This document shows, one piece after another, positions 1 through 4,947 of a stretch of DNA of 4,947 bases. A program made the position numbers and the translations under genes. This DNA is from a virus (Duplodnaviria > Heunggongvirae > Uroviricota > Caudoviricetes): positions 1 through 4,947 of the IMG/VR virus record IMGVR_UViG_2740892439_000004; one strand, written 5' to 3'. Numbering within the stretch: the stretch's first letter is position 1; each line of letters begins with the position of its first letter. The notes beneath the pieces are model-generated. The model was not told the DNA's origin and made no database searches. It saw nothing but the letters and a program-made list of their open reading frames with translations.

Positions 1-51
1 GGACGCAATGCCTGAAATAATTTTTTTGCAAATCACAAAGTCCATTTAATG

Positions 52-76
52 AGCCTCGCGATGCGGGGCTTTTTTT
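52..76 (+). terminator. rho-independent (intrinsic) terminator
   Basis: Inverted repeat agcctcgc / gcggggct (8 bp stem with one G-U pair, 3-nt loop gat) at 52-70, followed directly by a T-run at 70-76. The U-tract exists only on the + strand, so it ends a rightward transcript coming from upstream of the window. Confidence 0.6.
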
Positions 77-225
77 ACATCTGAATTTCACAGCGCATCT
101 CACGCGCATATTACATCACCCGAGCCTTTCAGAAAGTTGAGCCTGAGAACTGCCGTATATGGTGGCGACCATCTCGGGGCGGCTTTTCTGTGAGACAGGC
201 TCACTTTCTAAAAGGTAAAGACGCT

Positions 226-714
226 ATGAACCAATTAGAAGAAAAGCTTCAAAGAATGATTTCCTTATACAAGGAAGATAACTGCCAAAAAGTTCCTGAA
301 AACATCGCAGAGTTAATGGAATTGGCAAGTGAATTTTCTGGCATGCTTAAGTCGTCAGGTGTTCGGTCAGCGTTCTTTGTTGAAATGCTGATGCACGGCG
401 GACTTATGGCAACAATGAGACGTGTAATGGAAGACCAGAGAAAAGAACCTCCTCAGGTATACGTTTTGTCATCGAAGAAAACTGGGCTAACCAAAATTGG
501 GTATTCATCCAACATTCCACAACGCATCAAATCGCTTGGCAACTCTGGACCAGACTGCTTGAAGCTTGAGTGCCTGATCCCTGGTGGAAGAGAAACTGAA
601 AACATGCTTCATCGCAAATTTGCCGCAAAGAGAAAGCACGGTGAATGGTTCGCCCTGTCCAAGGATGACATTGAGGGATTGAAATCTGTAGCGATTACTT
701 CTGATGGCTATTAA
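226..714 (+). CDS. T5orf172 / GIY-YIG-like domain protein with an uncharacterised N-terminal helical domain (163 aa)
   Basis: ORF-track frame 190..714. I prefer the ATG at 226 (MNQLEEK...) because AAGG at 212-215 sits about 10 nt upstream, whereas 190 is a GTG with no RBS. The C-terminal half carries the motif series VYVL...GLTKIGYS...RIKSL...ENMLHRKF...GEWF that I recognise as the T5orf172 (PF10544-type, GIY-YIG-related) fold. Very AT-rich codon usage compared with the lambda structural genes downstream. Stop TAA at 712-714. Confidence 0.75.
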   Translation: MNQLEEKLQRMISLYKEDNCQKVPENIAELMELASEFSGMLKSSGVRSAFFVEMLMHGGLMATMRRVMEDQRKEPPQVYVLSSKKTGLTKIGYSSNIPQRIKSLGNSGPDCLKLECLIPGGRETENMLHRKFAAKRKHGEWFALSKDDIEGLKSVAITSDGY

Positions 715-753
715 TGCTTGTTTAGAGCAATTTTCATAACAACTCTTCATTAC

Positions 754-783
754 AAAGCCCATCTACTGGTGGGCTTGATAATG
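754..783. repeat. hairpin repeat copy 1 (stem aagccca/tgggctt, then gataatg)
   Basis: 7-bp stem 755-761 pairs with 770-776 around an 8-nt loop, followed by GATAATG at 777-783. Lies between the convergent 226-714 gene and the minus-strand region. A second copy with the same architecture is at 1111-1143. Confidence 0.4.
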
Positions 784-1028
784 AAACCGTGATTTACATC
801 CCCACAATCCGGGTATGTAAAAGATAGTTCAGGCGAGAACGGATTTAACTAAATCTGTGCGCCACCAGTTAACGGCAGTACCACGAAACAACCCAAGCCA
901 GTAAGTGGGGAAATAACACCGGCAGCCACTGAAAGATGAACCTCCTGCCTTATGGCAAAAAAGATTCTTTGTGGTGGCGGACTGATGGAAAGACATCCTA
1001 ATTTCAGCCAAACATTGAAGGAGTTGTT

Positions 1029-1100
1029 ATGTCAGCAGAAGGTTTCAATAACCCATCAAAATTCCGGGATGAGTGGGATAGCAGCGTAAAGAGTAAGTGA
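1029..1100 (+). CDS. candidate small ORF (23 aa, MSAEGFNNPSKFRDEWDSSVKSK) with a strong Shine-Dalgarno
   Basis: GAAGGAG at 1017-1023 lies 5 nt before the ATG at 1029, the best SD match in the window. Stop TGA at 1098-1100. Too short for compositional evidence and no clear promoter found. Confidence 0.2.
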   Translation: MSAEGFNNPSKFRDEWDSSVKSK

Positions 1101-1110
1101 TGCCATCACA

Positions 1111-1143
1111 AAAGCCATTCCCTACAGAGTGGCTTTGATAATG
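1111..1143. repeat. hairpin repeat copy 2 (stem aaagcca/tggcttt, then gataatg)
   Basis: 7-bp stem 1111-1117 pairs with 1130-1136 around a 12-nt loop, followed by GATAATG at 1137-1143. Same flanking words as copy 1 (cat-aca-aagcc on the left, gctt-gataatg on the right). On the minus strand the stem is followed by a U-rich run (uuuugugau), so it may terminate the minus-strand genes upstream of it. Confidence 0.4.
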
Positions 1144-1182
1144 GCTTATACCCTACACGGGATAACTTAACTGATATCCCTT

Positions 1183-1347
1183 TTAAAGGATAAAGGTATT
1201 CAAGCCTGACACATCATGCGCTGTATCGTCGCCGTATTCCCGTATTAACAGAGACCGTAGCCCGACGGGGAACTCCTTCTGCGCGAGTGTGCGGGAATAA
1301 TCAAAAACGATGCACACCGGGGTTACCGGGTACACATATTTCATCAT
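1183..1347 (-). CDS. candidate small ORF (54 aa) or gene remnant, below the ORF-track cutoff
   Basis: Minus-strand ATG at 1347 to TAA at 1185-1183 (MMKYVYPVTPVCIVFDYSRTLAQKEFPVGLRSLLIREYGDDTAHDVSGLNTFIL), found by manual translation. Sits 45 bp downstream of the 136-aa gene in a locally GC-richer islet (about 1200-1392). No convincing RBS. Confidence 0.2.
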   Translation of the reverse strand: MMKYVYPVTPVCIVFDYSRTLAQKEFPVGLRSLLIREYGDDTAHDVSGLNTFIL

Positions 1348-1392
1348 GCCAGCGAGTCCGGTTCTGGCACGGAAGAAACCGGACGTTATGAT

Positions 1393-1803
1393 TTAGTGCG
1401 GAAATATTTGTGTAGTGTTCTGAATGTTCTCAGTAAAGAGTAATGAATTATCAAAGGTATAGTAATACCTTTTGTTTTCGTGGATATTTGTAATCCATCT
1501 GAAAACCCCTGCTGTAGCAAGATTTTTCCTGTATTCGTAAAATGATAACTCTCCTGATTTGAATCCTTTTAATGTGGCTTCTATAAGGCATTTATTTTTT
1601 GAAAATCTTACATTTACAACCTTACCCTGTCCTTTTATTAAAACCGTATTATCGTTTTCAAGAACAAGATGAATATTCTCTGTGGCTAAATAGTAAATGT
1701 AATGTGAGACATTGTGACGTTTTAGTTCAGAATAAAACCAGTGATAGTTTAAATTATTTCGCACTTTATCGAATATTTGTTTAAAAATGGCAACCTGAGC
1801 CAT
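1393..1803 (-). CDS. hypothetical protein (136 aa), Tyr/Asn-rich, no family recognised
   Basis: ORF-track frame 1393..1818. I prefer the second Met (MAQVAIFKQ..., ATG at 1803) because GGAAGG lies 7 nt upstream on the minus strand. A 400+ nt open frame in very AT-rich DNA, where stops are frequent, argues for real coding. The antisense + ORF 1599..1784 is treated as a shadow. Confidence 0.6.
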
Positions 1804-1860
1804 TGTAGTACCTTCCATGTGATATGAGGGTACCTAGTCTGCACGATTATCTAAATTGCT

Positions 1861-2094
1861 TCAATCTGGTCTGACCTGCTTTCTGAGCAATTCAGTAATG
1901 TCACTCTTTTCTTTGTTTGCTTCAGGCGAAACTCTTTTTTCTGAGCACAGTCTTCGGCGGCAGGCTTCAATGACCCAGGCTGAGAAGTTCCCAGACCCTT
2001 TTTGATCAAGAGCGATGTTAATTTGTTCAATCATTTGGTTAGGAAAGCGGATGTTGCGGGTTGTTGTTCTGCGGGTTCTGTTCTTCGTTGACAT
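1861..2094 (-). CDS. ribbon-helix-helix (Arc/CopG-like) DNA-binding protein (77 aa)
   Basis: The N-terminal region reads as a beta-strand (RNIRFP), helix A (NQMIEQINIALDQKG), a G-x-N turn, then helix B (NFSAWVIEACRRRL), matching RHH architecture. It is preceded by a basic Arg/Thr-rich tail and followed by a charged C-terminal extension. It lies 57 bp upstream of, and co-oriented with, the 136-aa gene. Confidence 0.6.
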   Translation of the reverse strand: MSTKNRTRRTTTRNIRFPNQMIEQINIALDQKGSGNFSAWVIEACRRRLCSEKRVSPEANKEKSDITELLRKQVRPD

Positions 2095-2163
2095 GAGGTT
2101 GTCCCGTATTCAGTGTCGCTGATTTGTATTGTCTGAAGTTGTTTTTACGTTAAGTTGATGCAG

Positions 2164-2196
2164 ATCAATTAATATGATACCTGCGTCATAATTGAT
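2164..2196. promoter_or_regulatory. imperfect inverted repeat (ATCAATTAatATGA ... TCATAATTGAT), candidate operator upstream of the RHH gene
   Basis: Arms at 2164-2177 and 2186-2196 are reverse-complementary except for a 2-nt indel, centred on tacctgcg, and sit about 70-100 bp upstream of the minus-strand RHH start in AT-rich DNA. No promoter hexamers could be assigned confidently. Confidence 0.25.
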
Positions 2197-2242
2197 TATT
2201 TGACGTGGTTTGATGGCGTAGATGCACGTTGTGACATGCAGA

Positions 2243-2465
2243 TGATAATTATTATCATTTTGCGGGTCCTTTCCGGCGATCCGACAGGTTACGGGGCGGC
2301 GACCTCGCGGGTTTTTGCTATTTATGAAAATTTTCCGGTTTAAGGTGTTTCCGTTCTTCTTCGTCGTAACTTAATGTTTTTATTTAAAATACCCCCTGAA
2401 AAGAAAGGAAACGACAGGTGCTGAAAACGAGCTTTTGGGCCTTTGTCGTTTCCTTTCTCTGTTTT
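2243..2465 (+). other. cos: lambdoid cohesive-end site cos (cosQ-side sequence, cosN, cosB with R3-I1-R2-R1)
   Basis: 2262-2293 reads ttgcgggtcctttccggcgatccgacaggttacg, the lambda right end with two mismatches. 2294-2305 is GGGCGGCGACCT, the lambda 12-nt cohesive end, followed by cgcgggtttttgctatttatgaaaattttccgg. R3-like gtttccgttcttc lies at 2347-2359 and an A/T-rich I1 region at about 2367-2391. R2 (2402-2416, agaaaggaaacgaca) and R1 (2444-2458, tgtcgtttcctttct) are an exact 15-bp inverted repeat. About 95% identical to the lambda sequence as I recall it. A palindrome GATAATtATTATC sits at 2243-2255. Confidence 0.9.
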
Positions 2466-2482
2466 TGGCCGTGGAATGAACA

Positions 2483-2671
2483 ATGGAAGTCAACAAAAAG
2501 CAGCTGGCTGACATTTTCGGTGCGAGTATCCGTACCATTCAGAACTGGCAGGAACAGGGAATGCCCGTTCTGCGAGGCGGTGGCAAGGGTAATGAGGTGC
2601 TTTATGACTCTGCCGCCGTCATAAAATGGTATGCCGAAATCTGGCGGATCCGGCGCGTGAGTTCACCATGA
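2483..2671 (+). pseudogene. nu1: terminase small subunit Nu1, truncated after codon 52 by an internal deletion
   Basis: MEVNKKQLADIFGASIRTIQNWQEQGMPVLRGGGKGNEVLYDSAAVIKWYAE matches the lambda gpNu1 N-terminus (winged-HTH DNA-binding region). After nucleotide 2639 the frame reads IWRIRRVSSP and stops at 2669-2671. Confidence 0.85.
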
Positions 2672-2736
2672 TTCAGTCAGCACCGCTGATGCTGCTGGCT
2701 GACCCTGATGAGTTCGTGTCCGTACAACTGGCGTAA
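2640..2736 (+). pseudogene. E: 3-prime remnant of major capsid gene E (last ~32 codons)
   Basis: The frame ending at TAA 2734-2736 reads ...LADPAREFTMIQSAPLMLLADPDEFVSVQLA, matching the lambda gpE C-terminus (...DPAREFTMIQSAPLMLLADPDEFVSVQLA). It has no start codon and is out of frame with the Nu1 stub. Confidence 0.7.
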
Positions 2737-2777
2737 TCATGGCCCTTCGGGGCCATTGTTTCTCTGTGGAGGAGTCC

Positions 2778-3176
2778 ATGACGAAAGATGAACTGATTGC
2801 CCGTCTCCGCTCGCTGGGTGAACAACTGAACCGTGATGTCAGCCTGACGGGGACGAAAGAAGAACTGGCGCTCCGTGTGGCAGAGCTGGAAGAGGAGCTT
2901 GATGACACGGATGAAACTGCCGGTCAGGACACCCCTCTCAGCCGGGAAAATGTGCTGACCGGACATGAAAATGAGGTGGGATCAGCGCAGCCGGATACCG
3001 TGATTCTGGATACGTCTGAACTGGTCACGGTCGTGGCACTGGTGAAGCTGCATACTGATGCACTTCACGCCACGCGGGATGAACCTGTGGCATTTGTGCT
3101 GCCGGGAACGGCGTTTCGTGTCTCTGCCGGTGTGGCAGCCGAAATGACAGAGCGCGGCCTGGCCAGAATGCAATAA
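2778..3176 (+). CDS. FI: head-tail joining / DNA packaging protein FI (132 aa)
   Basis: MTKDELIARLRSLGEQLNRDVSLTGTKEELALRVAELEEELDDTDETAGQDTPLSRENVL... matches lambda gpFI almost exactly. GGAGGA lies 4 nt before the ATG at 2778. The ORF-track start at 2739 is an upstream in-frame extension. Stop TAA at 3174-3176. Confidence 0.9.
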   Translation: MTKDELIARLRSLGEQLNRDVSLTGTKEELALRVAELEEELDDTDETAGQDTPLSRENVLTGHENEVGSAQPDTVILDTSELVTVVALVKLHTDALHATRDEPVAFVLPGTAFRVSAGVAAEMTERGLARMQ

Positions 3177-3187
3177 CGGGAGGCGCT

Positions 3188-3541
3188 GTGGCTGATTTCG
3201 ATAACCTGTTCGATGCTGCCATTGCCTGCGCCGATGAAACGATACGCGGGTACATGGGAACGTCAGCCACCATGACATCCGGTGAGCAGTCCGGTGCTGT
3301 GATACGTGGTGTTTTTGATGACCCTGAAAATATCAGCTATGCCGGACAGGGCGTGCGCGTTGAAGGCTCCAGCCCGTCCCTGTTTGTCCGGACTGATGAT
3401 GTGCGGCAGCTGCGGCGCGGCGACACGCTGACCATCGGTGAGGAAAACTTCTGGATAGACCGGATTTCGCCGGATGATGGCGGAAGCTGTCATCTCTGGC
3501 TTGGGCGGGGCGTACCGCCTGCCGTTAACCGTCGCCGCTGA
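3188..3541 (+). CDS. FII: head completion protein FII (117 aa)
   Basis: MADFDNLFDAAIACADETIRGYMGTSATMTSGEQSGAVIRGVFDDPENISYAGQGVRVEGSSPSLFVRTDDVRQLRRGDTLTIGEENFWIDRISPDDGGSCHLWLGRGVPPAVNRRR matches lambda gpFII with a few substitutions. GTG start with GGGAGG 4 nt upstream. Confidence 0.9.
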   Translation: MADFDNLFDAAIACADETIRGYMGTSATMTSGEQSGAVIRGVFDDPENISYAGQGVRVEGSSPSLFVRTDDVRQLRRGDTLTIGEENFWIDRISPDDGGSCHLWLGRGVPPAVNRRR

Positions 3542-3552
3542 AAGGGGGATGT

Positions 3553-4130
3553 ATGGCCATAAAAGGTCTTGAGCAGGCCGTTGAAAACCTCAGCCGTATC
3601 AGCAGAACGGCGGTGCCCGGTGCCGCCGCAATGGCCATTAACCGCGTTGCTTCATCCGCGATATCGCAGTCGGTGGTACAGGTTGCCCGTGAGACAAAGG
3701 TACGCCGGAAACTGGTAAAGGAAAGGGCCAGGCTGAAAAGGGCCACGGTCAAAAATCCGCAGGCCAGAATCAAGGTTAACCGGGGGGATTTGCCCGTAAT
3801 AAAGCTGGGTAACGCGCGGGTTGTCCTGTCCCGACGCAGGCGTCGTAAAAAGGGGCAGCGTTCAGCCTGAAAGGTGGCGGCAGTGTGCTTGTGGTGGGTA
3901 ACCGTCGTATTCCCGGCGCGTTTATTCAGCAACTGAAAAACGGCCGGTGGCATGTTATGCAGCGTGTGGCCGGGAAAAACCGTTACCCCATTGATGTGGT
4001 GAAAATCCCGATGGCGGTGCCGCTGACCACGGCGTTTAAACAGAATATTGAACGGATACGGCGTGAACGTCTTCCGAAAGAGCTGGGCTATGCGCTGCAG
4101 CATCAACTGAGGATGGTAATAAAGCGATGA
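3553..4130 (+). pseudogene. Z: tail completion protein Z, disrupted by a 1-nt frameshift
   Basis: 3553-3870 encodes the gpZ N-terminus (MAIKGLEQAVENLSRIS...RRRRRKKGQRS) and then stops. 3885-4130, in another frame, encodes the gpZ C-terminus (LVVGNRRIPGAFIQQLKNGRWHVMQR...HQLRMVIKR). The total span is 578 nt, one short of an intact 579-nt Z, placing a single-base deletion near 3862-3867. Confidence 0.8.
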
Positions 4131-4522
4131 AACATACTGAACTCCGTGCAGCCGTACTGGATGCACTGGAGAAGCATGACACCGGGGCGACGTTTTTTGA
4201 TGGTCGCCCCGCTGTTTTTGATGAGGCGGATTTTCCGGCAGTTGCCGTTTATCTCACCGGCGCTGAATACACGGGCGAAGAGCTGGACAGCGATACCTGG
4301 CAGGCGGAGCTGCATATCGAAGTTTTCCTGCCTGCTCAGGTGCCGGATTCAGAGCTGGATGCGTGGATGGAGTCCCGGATTTATCCGGTGATGAGCGATA
4401 TCCCGGCACTGTCAGATTTGATCACCAGTATGGTGGCCAGCGGCTATGACTACCGGCGCGACGATGATGCGGGCCTGTGGAGTTCAGCCGATCTGACTTA
4501 TGTCATTACCTATGAAATGTGA
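4127..4522 (+). CDS. U: tail terminator protein U (131 aa)
   Basis: MKHTELRAAVLDALEKHDTGATFFDGRPAVFDEADFPAVAVYLTGAEYTGEELDSDTWQAELHIEVFLP... matches lambda gpU. Its ATG overlaps the Z stop (ATGA at 4127-4130), as in lambda. Confidence 0.9.
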   Translation: MKHTELRAAVLDALEKHDTGATFFDGRPAVFDEADFPAVAVYLTGAEYTGEELDSDTWQAELHIEVFLPAQVPDSELDAWMESRIYPVMSDIPALSDLITSMVASGYDYRRDDDAGLWSSADLTYVITYEM

Positions 4523-4529
4523 GGACGCT

Positions 4530-4550
4530 ATGCCTGTACGGAAACATTGA
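4530..4550 (+). pseudogene. V: remnant of major tail protein gene V (start plus 2 codons, then deletion junction)
   Basis: GAGGA RBS followed by atgcctgtac, identical to the lambda V start (MPV). The sequence diverges from lambda at 4540 and the frame stops at 4548-4550 (MPVRKH*). Confidence 0.6.
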
Positions 4551-4947
4551 CTTTATCGAGATCTCGGCGCGCGGTCTGCCTTCTTCGCTTACTGCTGATA
4601 ATGTATCTCGTTACCTGAGTATACGCCGTTTAGGGCCAACCGGGCTAATCAATAGCATGCAAATGCGTTACGGCCTGGTTAAAGATGATGGCTTTATTGA
4701 GGTTTGGGCCTTCCAGCGTGCATTTATCAACGGCGCAAAGGTTGCGGTACTGGCGCAGACGGCACGCACGGAATTATACATTCCAGACGGATTTGTTAAG
4801 CAAACCGCCGCGCCTTCTGGATATGTTGAAAGCCCCGTTGTAAGGATTTACGACCAGTTAAACAAGCCGACTAAAGCAGATTTGGGTCTTTCTAATGCTA
4901 TGCTTACAGGCGCTTTCGGTCTTGGCGGTAGCGGGATAGCAACAACC
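4540..4947 (+). CDS. 5-prime-truncated ORF fragment of unknown function (136 codons, runs off the window end), fused at the V deletion junction
   Basis: Frame 1 is open from 4516 to the window end (...GNIDFIEISARGLPSSLTADNVSRYLSIRRLGPTGLINSMQMRYGLVKDDGFIEVWAFQRAFINGAKVAVLAQTARTELYIPDGFVKQTAAPSGYVESPVVRIYDQLNKPTKADLGLSNAMLTGAFGLGGSGIATT). All three minus-strand frames are interrupted by stops every 180 nt or less here. No start codon with an RBS, and I do not recognise it as a lambda protein. The first in-frame ATG (4657) has no SD. Confidence 0.45.

Follow-up and report, generated by a model that had tools for sequence, protein, structure and literature searches.

T5orf172 genes are of the homing endonuclease type and occur where segments of phage genomes are exchanged, at the boundaries, most often close to terminase genes (PMC10448857). 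The ICP1 protein Odn (Gp88) is a proven T5orf172 DNase that retains the conserved Arg and Glu, the Glu being needed for cleavage, and that places an N-terminal targeting domain ahead of a C-terminal T5orf172 domain (PMC8263062). The domain has also long been associated with the Bro-N/KilA-N/Rha network (PMC8096241; PMC10111431). The present analysis concerns a gene of this kind at positions 226 to 714 of a 4,947-nucleotide (nt) stretch of caudoviral DNA, hereafter the window (IMG/VR virus record IMGVR_UViG_2740892439_000004, positions 1 to 4,947). Its 162-residue product, equivalent to gp64 of phage HK106, joins a domain homologous to the free-standing phage protein HkbL to a T5orf172 domain. 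As judged by comparison of sequences, an exchangeable accessory cassette lies between the lysis and packaging genes of lambdoid phages, and the gene is one of the alleles of this cassette; a structured leader that precedes the gene pairs with the Shine-Dalgarno sequence of the gene. The interpretation tentatively preferred here is that it encodes a late-expressed, dispensable, free-standing homing-type or conflict nuclease.

Domain Architecture of the Protein

The C-terminal domain is basic and belongs to two Pfam families of the GIY-YIG clan, both of which it matches above the gathering score over residues 78-151: MUG113 (PF13455; E 6e-15, 56 bits, cutoff 22.3) and T5orf172 (PF10544; E 2.8e-10, 41 bits, cutoff 20). 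This profile search agrees with an earlier note on the window, made from the sequence alone, which had recognized a T5orf172/GIY-YIG-like domain from the motifs VYVL, GLTKIGYS, RIKSL, ENMLHRKF, and GEWF, all of them present in the translation. The generic GIY-YIG model (PF01541) stays below threshold, at 12.5 vs. 22.6 bits. Residues Y79, K90, I91, G92, R100, and E125 are invariant across 64 homologues, and H129 and the stretch G139-F142, E140 included, are nearly so. The second Tyr of the GIY-YIG set ('YIG') corresponds to Lys90 in the invariant K90-I91-G92, and in a weak alignment to the GIY-YIG domain of UvrC (E 0.24, first half only) Y79 and R100 fall at the positions of the catalytic Tyr and Arg. 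Secondary-structure prediction gives the order strand, strand, helix, strand, helix. With its catalytic-type Arg and Glu the domain is predicted to be, most likely, one that cuts DNA. RefSeq annotates a 'GIY-YIG nuclease family protein' at the same coordinates; the 162-residue protein is matched over its full length by phrog_4284 (function not assigned), and NCBIfam holds no model for it. A GTG at 190 was considered as an alternative start and rejected, since it falls within the leader hairpin and the KilA-N and Rha cassette genes described below share the ATG at 226. Two longer forms among the compared proteins, P0001 (224 residues) and P0003/P0004 (174 residues), resemble over-extended calls of the T5orf172 gene.

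The N-terminal domain is acidic and, as the earlier note had proposed, helical, although its boundary lies near residue 76 rather than at about 85. AlphaFold2 predicts three long helices (residues 3-20, 23-43, and 49-71/73) with a predicted local distance difference test score of 91-93. The accompanying statement that this part of the protein matches nothing did not hold, even though the domain has no match in Pfam, structure searches returned only generic helical bundles, and an exhaustive HMMER search with its profile against 1.84 billion representatives recovered only its own family. The lead to a homologue came through synteny. In HK620 the slot is occupied by hkbK (KilA-N) and, behind it, the 85-residue hkbL, which scores 27 bits against the N-domain profile in hmmsearch, a value too weak to emerge from a search of 1.84 billion representatives. 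Confirmation came from profile-profile comparison: in hhalign, nine fused N-domains align to 21 free-standing HkbL-like proteins with a probability of 97.5% (E 7e-12, 71 columns), and the window clade alone does so at 93.7% (E 2e-7), compared with 0.8% in a reversed control. PHROG searches cross-hit in the same way, hkbL matching phrog_4284 at 4e-6 and gp65 of Salmonella phage g341c matching phrog_875 at 1.4e-6. The latter, a 161-residue family member, is also a bridge between the sequences themselves (LRRNGCVNSIFF vs. LRLNGCVNHHFV). The similarity between profiles is thus significant over the whole domain and places it in the HkbL-like family (phrog_875).

In four different phage backbones a free-standing HkbL-like gene comes after a KilA-N-ORF11CD3 gene, the two overlapping by 4 nt; an HkbL-like gene is likewise placed behind KilA-N in 79 of 80 IMG/VR loci, and in a P22-like immI region one such gene comes after a Rha-ANT gene. 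Because of this gene order the N-domain is to be regarded as a recurrent partner of the Bro-N/KilA-N/Rha network. Acidic and unlike a DNA-binding domain, it most likely supplies oligomerization or a target-setting protein partner. HK97 p61 (77 residues; 1241-1474 of the comparison locus L016, comparison loci being designated by the prefix L) matches hkbL exactly for some 54 residues before diverging, and looks like a frameshifted or truncated HkbL after a longer (242-residue) KilA-N protein. The KilA-N protein HkbK (L004 3076-3573) and the Rha protein of JEP4 (L005 2579-3097) have in common a homologous C-terminal ORF11CD3 domain ending in IPGLPG/K, and the swap between them affected the N-terminal DNA-binding domain only.

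The Cassette and Its Leader

Pairwise comparison of lambdoid phages sets the limits of the cassette sharply. Conservation of the left flank ends at about 230-233 of the window, at the start codon, and that of the right flank begins again at 748, which is 34 nt beyond the stop codon. Between these flanks lie KilA-N and hkbL in HK620, a Rha-ORF11CD3 gene in JEP4, and the T5orf172 gene in HK106 and the window. The viable HK97-like phage HK106 carries the gene as gp64, after Rz and a terminator and before an HNH gene and cos; an Rz-like gene precedes the cassette in HK620, JEP4, and c341 as well. The left flank was found in 253 phage records, including Shiga toxin (Stx), P22-like, Klebsiella, and Actinobacillus phages, and in the annotated records among those listed a cassette gene always comes next. 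The gene itself is accessory, as the earlier note had supposed, and no conserved core gene: it is present in 82 of 5426 complete E. coli genomes, in single copy and at ≥99% identity, cryptic prophages included, and its family in five distinct phages among 50,697 records (HK106, Chlobot, g341c, epsilon34, and NM-3). IMG/VR contributes 45 loci.

Among 42 near-identical copies of the gene, leader identity ranges from 86 to 100%, and about half have the DLP12-type ybcV/ylcI/Nu1 genes downstream while the rest do not. Copies at least 98% identical occur in lambda/DLP12-like backbones and in others without those downstream markers. Recombination thus breaks at the gene boundaries, since leader and downstream region vary among near-identical copies. 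Homologues that are 76-83% identical (Salmonella, Klebsiella) or 49% identical also lie after the lysis genes and before terminase. One at 51% identity lies between the tail genes V and G as a clean insertion of about 654 bp with its own leader and terminator (L010); this insertion, with the T run of a terminator at either end, is absent from the related Providencia phage PSTCR8lys. Sporadic presence at a precise site between conserved genes, as expected of a homing endonuclease gene, is seen in the V-G insertion; in the post-lysis slot, of which no truly empty form was found, the gene takes turns with other cassettes between fixed junctions. All homologue copies are co-oriented with the late genes, and the 14 contexts examined are all phage late operons. 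In a Klebsiella prophage (L012 6489-7187) the T5orf172 homologue overlaps the start of an Endonuclease_NS (non-specific nuclease) gene by 4 nt, and in Salmonella a 47-residue open reading frame (ORF) overlaps a homologue likewise. A 2.9-kb contig labelled 'MAG: Bacillota bacterium' (L068, JAEWTL010000129.1) has this E. coli phage segment at 100% identity and is most likely a binning or contamination artefact.

The leader is a conserved extended hairpin of about 95 nt, whose basal helix pairs GCCUUU (124-129) with the Shine-Dalgarno sequence of the gene, AAAGGU (211-216). Its minimum free energy (MFE) is -44.3 kcal/mol (z -4.2). The MFE folds of five other, very different leaders also give an extended hairpin, with the Shine-Dalgarno-pairing base in four of them (L019, Klebsiella L012, L006, and L010), and the HK97 leader fold differs at the base. 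RNAalifold finds seven compensatory pairs. A covariance model, R1, recovers the leader before T5orf172, KilA-N, and Rha genes, before four HNH_3 genes of homing endonuclease type (one with an AP2 domain), and before two unassigned genes; the element is also located at L014 3415-3522, L021 101-210 and 1165-1280, L022 1185-1296, L020 5028-5122, L063 633-744, and L152 838-950. In the model alignment 92.5% of cells are paired, vs. 36-47% in slid controls, with double changes in 29 of 34 pairs, and doubly changed cells number 137 vs. 36±4 in shuffles. This alignment was fitted to the model, and the independent single-sequence folds agree with it. No Rfam covariance model matched at E≤1 anywhere in the window.

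A transcript corresponding to this leader has been seen. An 89-nt small noncoding RNA (sncRNA), P22F, was detected in P22 infection just upstream of rha (PMC13397905); it maps to L152 851-939, and the model hit in P22, given above, scores 46.5 bits. The annotated start of P22 rha (ORF201) lies inside the leader hairpin (L152 876; NC_002371.2 39575), and the register of the covariance model and the 3' end of P22F suggest that the real start would be about 70 nt downstream (L152 ~945; NC_002371.2 ~39644). At the 5' end of the window leader stands a small palindrome, replaced in other variants by GCGCA-N6-TGCGC or GTGC-N7-GCAC, with covarying arms; it could be a hairpin or a candidate protein-binding site.

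Expression of the gene would depend on the late transcript. A simple consensus scan detected no sigma-70-like promoter on the plus strand in 78-225 or in the V-G insertion, and transcription probably comes only from the antiterminated late message. Terminators flank the unit, which without a promoter in that scan departs from a moron in the Hendrix/Juhala sense, an element with its own promoter and terminator that is expressed from the repressed prophage. Control of the leader by integration host factor, an idea from older work on rha, was rejected, consensus sites being at chance level and none lying in the leader.

Evidence on dispensability comes from a chimeric HK106 built with the phi80 gene atiEcA (PMC11364771). 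The primer junctions in Table S8 of that study map to window positions 202-228, ending at the ATG, and 715-740, starting with the first base past the stop; because they coincide exactly with the ends of the ORF, the gene replaced was gp64. The chimera was viable and plated normally, with no growth defect reported on the laboratory host E. coli 594, and AtiEcA was functional during infection from the gp64 position (PMC11364771). The gene is thus dispensable in the laboratory, since HK106 is viable without it, and the leader permits expression during infection, since AtiEcA was functional behind it. In phi80 itself the slot holds the lysogen-expressed immunity gene taiEcA and the Q-dependent counter-defense gene atiEcA (PMC11364771).

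The Prophage and Other Features of the Window

The full-length match of the window is a record of E. coli strain 300081, at 100.0% identity, in which the aligned stretch is one base longer. The window forms part of a DLP12-like cryptic prophage adjoining tRNA-Arg, and this prophage has decayed: an IS3 element splits the antiterminator gene quuD (Q), essD and Nu1 are truncated, and most head genes are gone. It is incapable of particle formation. Because Q is split, the T5orf172 gene is probably silent in this prophage. Nu1 (2483-2671) is cut short at some 52 residues, FI (2739-3176) follows almost directly, genes A through E are deleted, and tail gene V is broken at about 4540, after which unrelated tail-fiber DNA follows. 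Two ORFs (3553-3870 and 3885-4130) make up the lambda Z-like tail gene in the window. A single intact 192-residue protein is annotated for it in the best-matching RefSeq record, which has one more base in this stretch; a 1-nt indel or a sequencing difference accounts for the split.

The gene has a G+C content of 42.9%, compared with 55-59% for FI, FII, Z, and U, in keeping with its description in the earlier note as an AT-rich accessory gene. The note had also placed it immediately upstream of cos, in the slot where lambda carries bor. The slot is confirmed by K-12 DLP12, in which borD (on the opposite strand) follows rzpD at the equivalent position. The gene is indeed upstream of cos, whose core GGGCGGCGACCT lies at 2294, but 1.6 kb away, with two minus-strand genes between them: a DUF1398 (YbcV-like) gene of 31.5% G+C at 1393-1818 and a YlcI/YnfO-like gene at 1861-2094. 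The opposite-strand orientation of these two genes is typical of lysogen-expressed morons.

On the other side of the gene, a rho-independent terminator is annotated in HK106 at the position equivalent to the one found in the window (Table 1). Past its stop codon, the 3' boundary hairpin lies in an element of about 40 nt (748-789) that directly follows hkbL where hkbL is present. The hairpin lacks a T run and is not a canonical terminator, and the element may be a stabilizer or a recombination handle instead. Further along, positions of about 868-1000 match the 204-nt P22 sncRNA P22G (sequence from PMC13397905; located in P22 and compared by eye), and this region is noncoding in the window save for short unsupported ORFs.

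Table 1. Features of the window around the T5orf172 gene
Feature	Position	Strand	Basis or remarks
Rz-like spanin (lysis) gene, 3' end	1..20	+	RefSeq 'lysis protein' coding sequence ends at L001 12020 = window 20
Intrinsic terminator after lysis genes	51..78	+	Terminator scan; 9-bp stem with 6 G-C pairs, T run
Small palindrome/hairpin GCGCATCTCACGCGC at 5' end of leader	93..107	+	Read from leader sequences and alignment
Conserved extended leader hairpin, ~95 nt	124..216	+	Folds, RNAalifold, covariance model
ORF, 162 residues, HkbL-like domain then T5orf172 domain	226..714, stop codon 712-714	+	ATG start, TAA stop; phrog_4284; = HK106 gp64
N-domain, residues 1-76, three long helices, acidic (isoelectric point 5.4), homologous to free-standing HkbL-like proteins (phrog_875)	226..453	+	AlphaFold2, hmmsearch, hhalign, PHROG cross-hits
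C-domain, residues 77-162, T5orf172/MUG113 nuclease-type, basic (isoelectric point 9.4)	454..711	+	Pfam, invariant columns
Conserved right flank of slot	748..997	+	96% identity to HK620 and JEP4 downstream of their differing cassette genes
3' boundary hairpin AAGCCCA-N8-TGGGCTT	755..776	+	Surrounding 748-789 conserved across HK97, HK022, Stx, and P22-like phages

Possible Functions and Relation to Known Systems

In the reading preferred here, a late homing-type or conflict nuclease, the late antiterminated transcript would be the only source of its mRNA, and the leader hairpin, by pairing with the Shine-Dalgarno sequence, would throttle translation as expected of a toxic product. The protein would then cut competing DNA, whether co-infecting or resident lambdoid genomes with another allele or satellites, and the cutting of rivals would promote the spread of the gene by recombination through the conserved flanks. 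This reading is preferred over defense by the lysogen because the motifs are nuclease-competent, the terminator-leader-ORF-terminator unit is portable, insertion occurs between conserved late genes, and the leader is common to HNH homing-type genes; it was also one of the options offered in the earlier note. Several observations weigh against it. Nuclease activity in the family is predicted from sequence, and structure searches gave no GIY-YIG folds among the top hits. A homing endonuclease is expected to have a sequence-specific DNA-binding domain, and the N-domain, being acidic, without a Pfam match, and similar in structure only to generic helical bundles, shows no fold that evidently binds DNA, although it may bind DNA by another route. 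Among the 50,697 phage records the post-lysis slot was nowhere seen empty, the joined flanks never matching in one piece. Late-only expression is argued from the simple consensus scan and from analogy with phi80, and the split Q gene makes silence probable in the window prophage itself.

A regulatory role is possible though unlikely. In that case the protein would be a non-catalytic member of the Bro-N/KilA-N/Rha network, with T5orf172 as a DNA-binding module, acting as a late regulatory or antirepressor-like factor equivalent to the cassettes it replaces. In its favor, KilA-N-ORF11CD3 plus HkbL and, elsewhere, Rha-ORF11CD3 are alleles of the gene that use the same start codon, the N-domain is homologous to a protein that follows KilA-N or Rha-ANT, and T5orf172 was first predicted to bind DNA from its association with Bro-N and KilA-N (PMC8096241). 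However, invariance of the catalytic-type Arg and Glu and of the rest of the motif set in 64 diverse homologues would be unexpected of a pure binding domain, the sole characterized T5orf172 protein cuts DNA (PMC8263062), and the leader is common to bona fide HNH nuclease genes. Rather improbable, too, is that the product is a weapon of benefit to the phage rather than a selfish homing gene, either a late nuclease against satellites, host defense, or host DNA, or a counter-defense factor. ICP1 Odn, which acts against PLE, offers a precedent with the same domain order (PMC8263062), the phi80 slot upstream of the packaging module holds Q-controlled atiEcA (PMC11364771), phages of the HK106 type are helpers of E. 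coli phage-inducible chromosomal islands, and the Klebsiella homologue is translationally coupled to its Endonuclease_NS gene. Yet the N-domain has no similarity to replication-initiator or known target-mimicking domains, and the gene is rare, freely replaced by non-nuclease cassettes, and replaceable without a reported growth defect on E. coli 594 (PMC11364771). A role as a packaging accessory like the HNH protein gp74 of HK97 was rejected, the gene being optional, present in phages with different packaging modules, and replaceable in viable HK106.

The interpretation placed first in the earlier note, a single-gene anti-phage defense or superinfection-exclusion effector expressed in the lysogen with the N-domain as sensor, is given little credence, and defense by the lysogen is disfavored. 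The post-lysis, pre-packaging slot is a recognized hotspot for moron and immunity genes (lambda bor; phi80 taiEcA), and the gene is intact in 82 E. coli genomes, cryptic prophages included. In PADLOC-DB v2 the sole match is to a candidate system, PDC-S57 (E 7e-6), weak and confined to the nuclease domain (residues 73-146 vs. profile positions 3-83 of 212), which does not place the protein in a known defense system. The defense-island framing of the note did not stand up in the examined contexts, none of which was a non-phage defense island. The scan showed no promoter, a terminator precedes the gene, and its ribosome-binding site is sequestered; the lysogen-expressed genes of the slot (bor, ybcV-like, ylcI-like) occupy the opposite strand, whereas this gene follows the late operon, and homologues lie between tail genes with the same leader. 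A more speculative version of the homing-type nuclease, considered very doubtful, is that the HkbL-like domain would be a protein adaptor whose normal docking site is the KilA-N/Rha-ORF11CD3/ANT protein encoded directly before free-standing hkbL, so that the fused nuclease would be recruited to DNA bound by the Bro-network protein of a rival phage. The result would be a homing or allelic-exclusion nuclease that is guided by protein and competes for a single slot. The portable Shine-Dalgarno-sequestering leader would serve this slot as well as other sites in late operons and would mark a class of toxic or selfish late cassettes (T5orf172, HNH-AP2, KilA-N, and Rha).

A role for T5orf172 nucleases in driving phage mosaicism is emerging, studied so far almost entirely in lytic vibriophages. 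As a homing-type or conflict nuclease family, the proteins described here would add temperate lambdoid phages (those of E. coli, Salmonella, and Klebsiella) to the known carriers, and their targeting domain would be of a kind other than a Zn finger. Homology to HkbL ties the nuclease to the poorly understood Bro-N/KilA-N/Rha network and gives a handle on the role of those very common cassettes. The shared structured leader, visible as P22F in P22 and absent from Rfam, suggests a common translational control of toxic accessory genes in phage late operons, those of Stx phages included. A gp64 replacement strain of HK106, JP24743, already exists (PMC11364771).

Among described systems, ICP1 Odn and the ICP1/T5-type T5orf172 homing endonucleases (Barth et al. 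2021 and 2023; PMC8263062; PMC10448857) likewise combine a C-terminal T5orf172 domain bearing the Arg and Glu with a variable, target-defining N-terminus, and the ICP1/T5-type genes are phage-borne, free-standing, and found at mosaic boundaries near packaging genes, as here. They differ in that the N-domain of the present protein is an acidic three-helix bundle, neither RepA_N-like nor a CapR/DUF723/DUF4397 Zn finger, and in that its carrier is temperate and lambdoid whereas theirs are lytic; nuclease activity here is predicted. The KilA-N/HkbL and Rha cassettes (PMC8096241; PMC10111431) share slot, leader, start codon, and 3' hairpin with the gene, as well as the homology of HkbL to its N-domain. 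Their effector joins a KilA-N or Rha DNA-binding domain to ORF11CD3, and HkbL, which has a basic tail, is encoded by a gene of its own, whereas in the window protein HkbL is fused to a nuclease-type domain and KilA-N, Rha, and ORF11CD3 are all missing.

Hairpins that mask the ribosome-binding site limit translation of the T4-type free-standing homing endonucleases (I-TevI and the seg genes). The present gene resembles them, as a lead only, in being a nuclease gene between conserved phage genes with a Shine-Dalgarno-occluding hairpin, and differs in having another leader and no sign of a late promoter within it from which a transcript free of the occlusion would start. With the lambdoid morons between lysis genes and cos (lambda bor, borD of K-12 DLP12, and phi80 taiEcA/atiEcA) it has in common the slot, a low G+C content, its optional nature, and flanking terminators. 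Unlike classical morons, which the lysogen expresses from a promoter of their own, this gene, for which no promoter was found, is oriented with the late operon, as is atiEcA.

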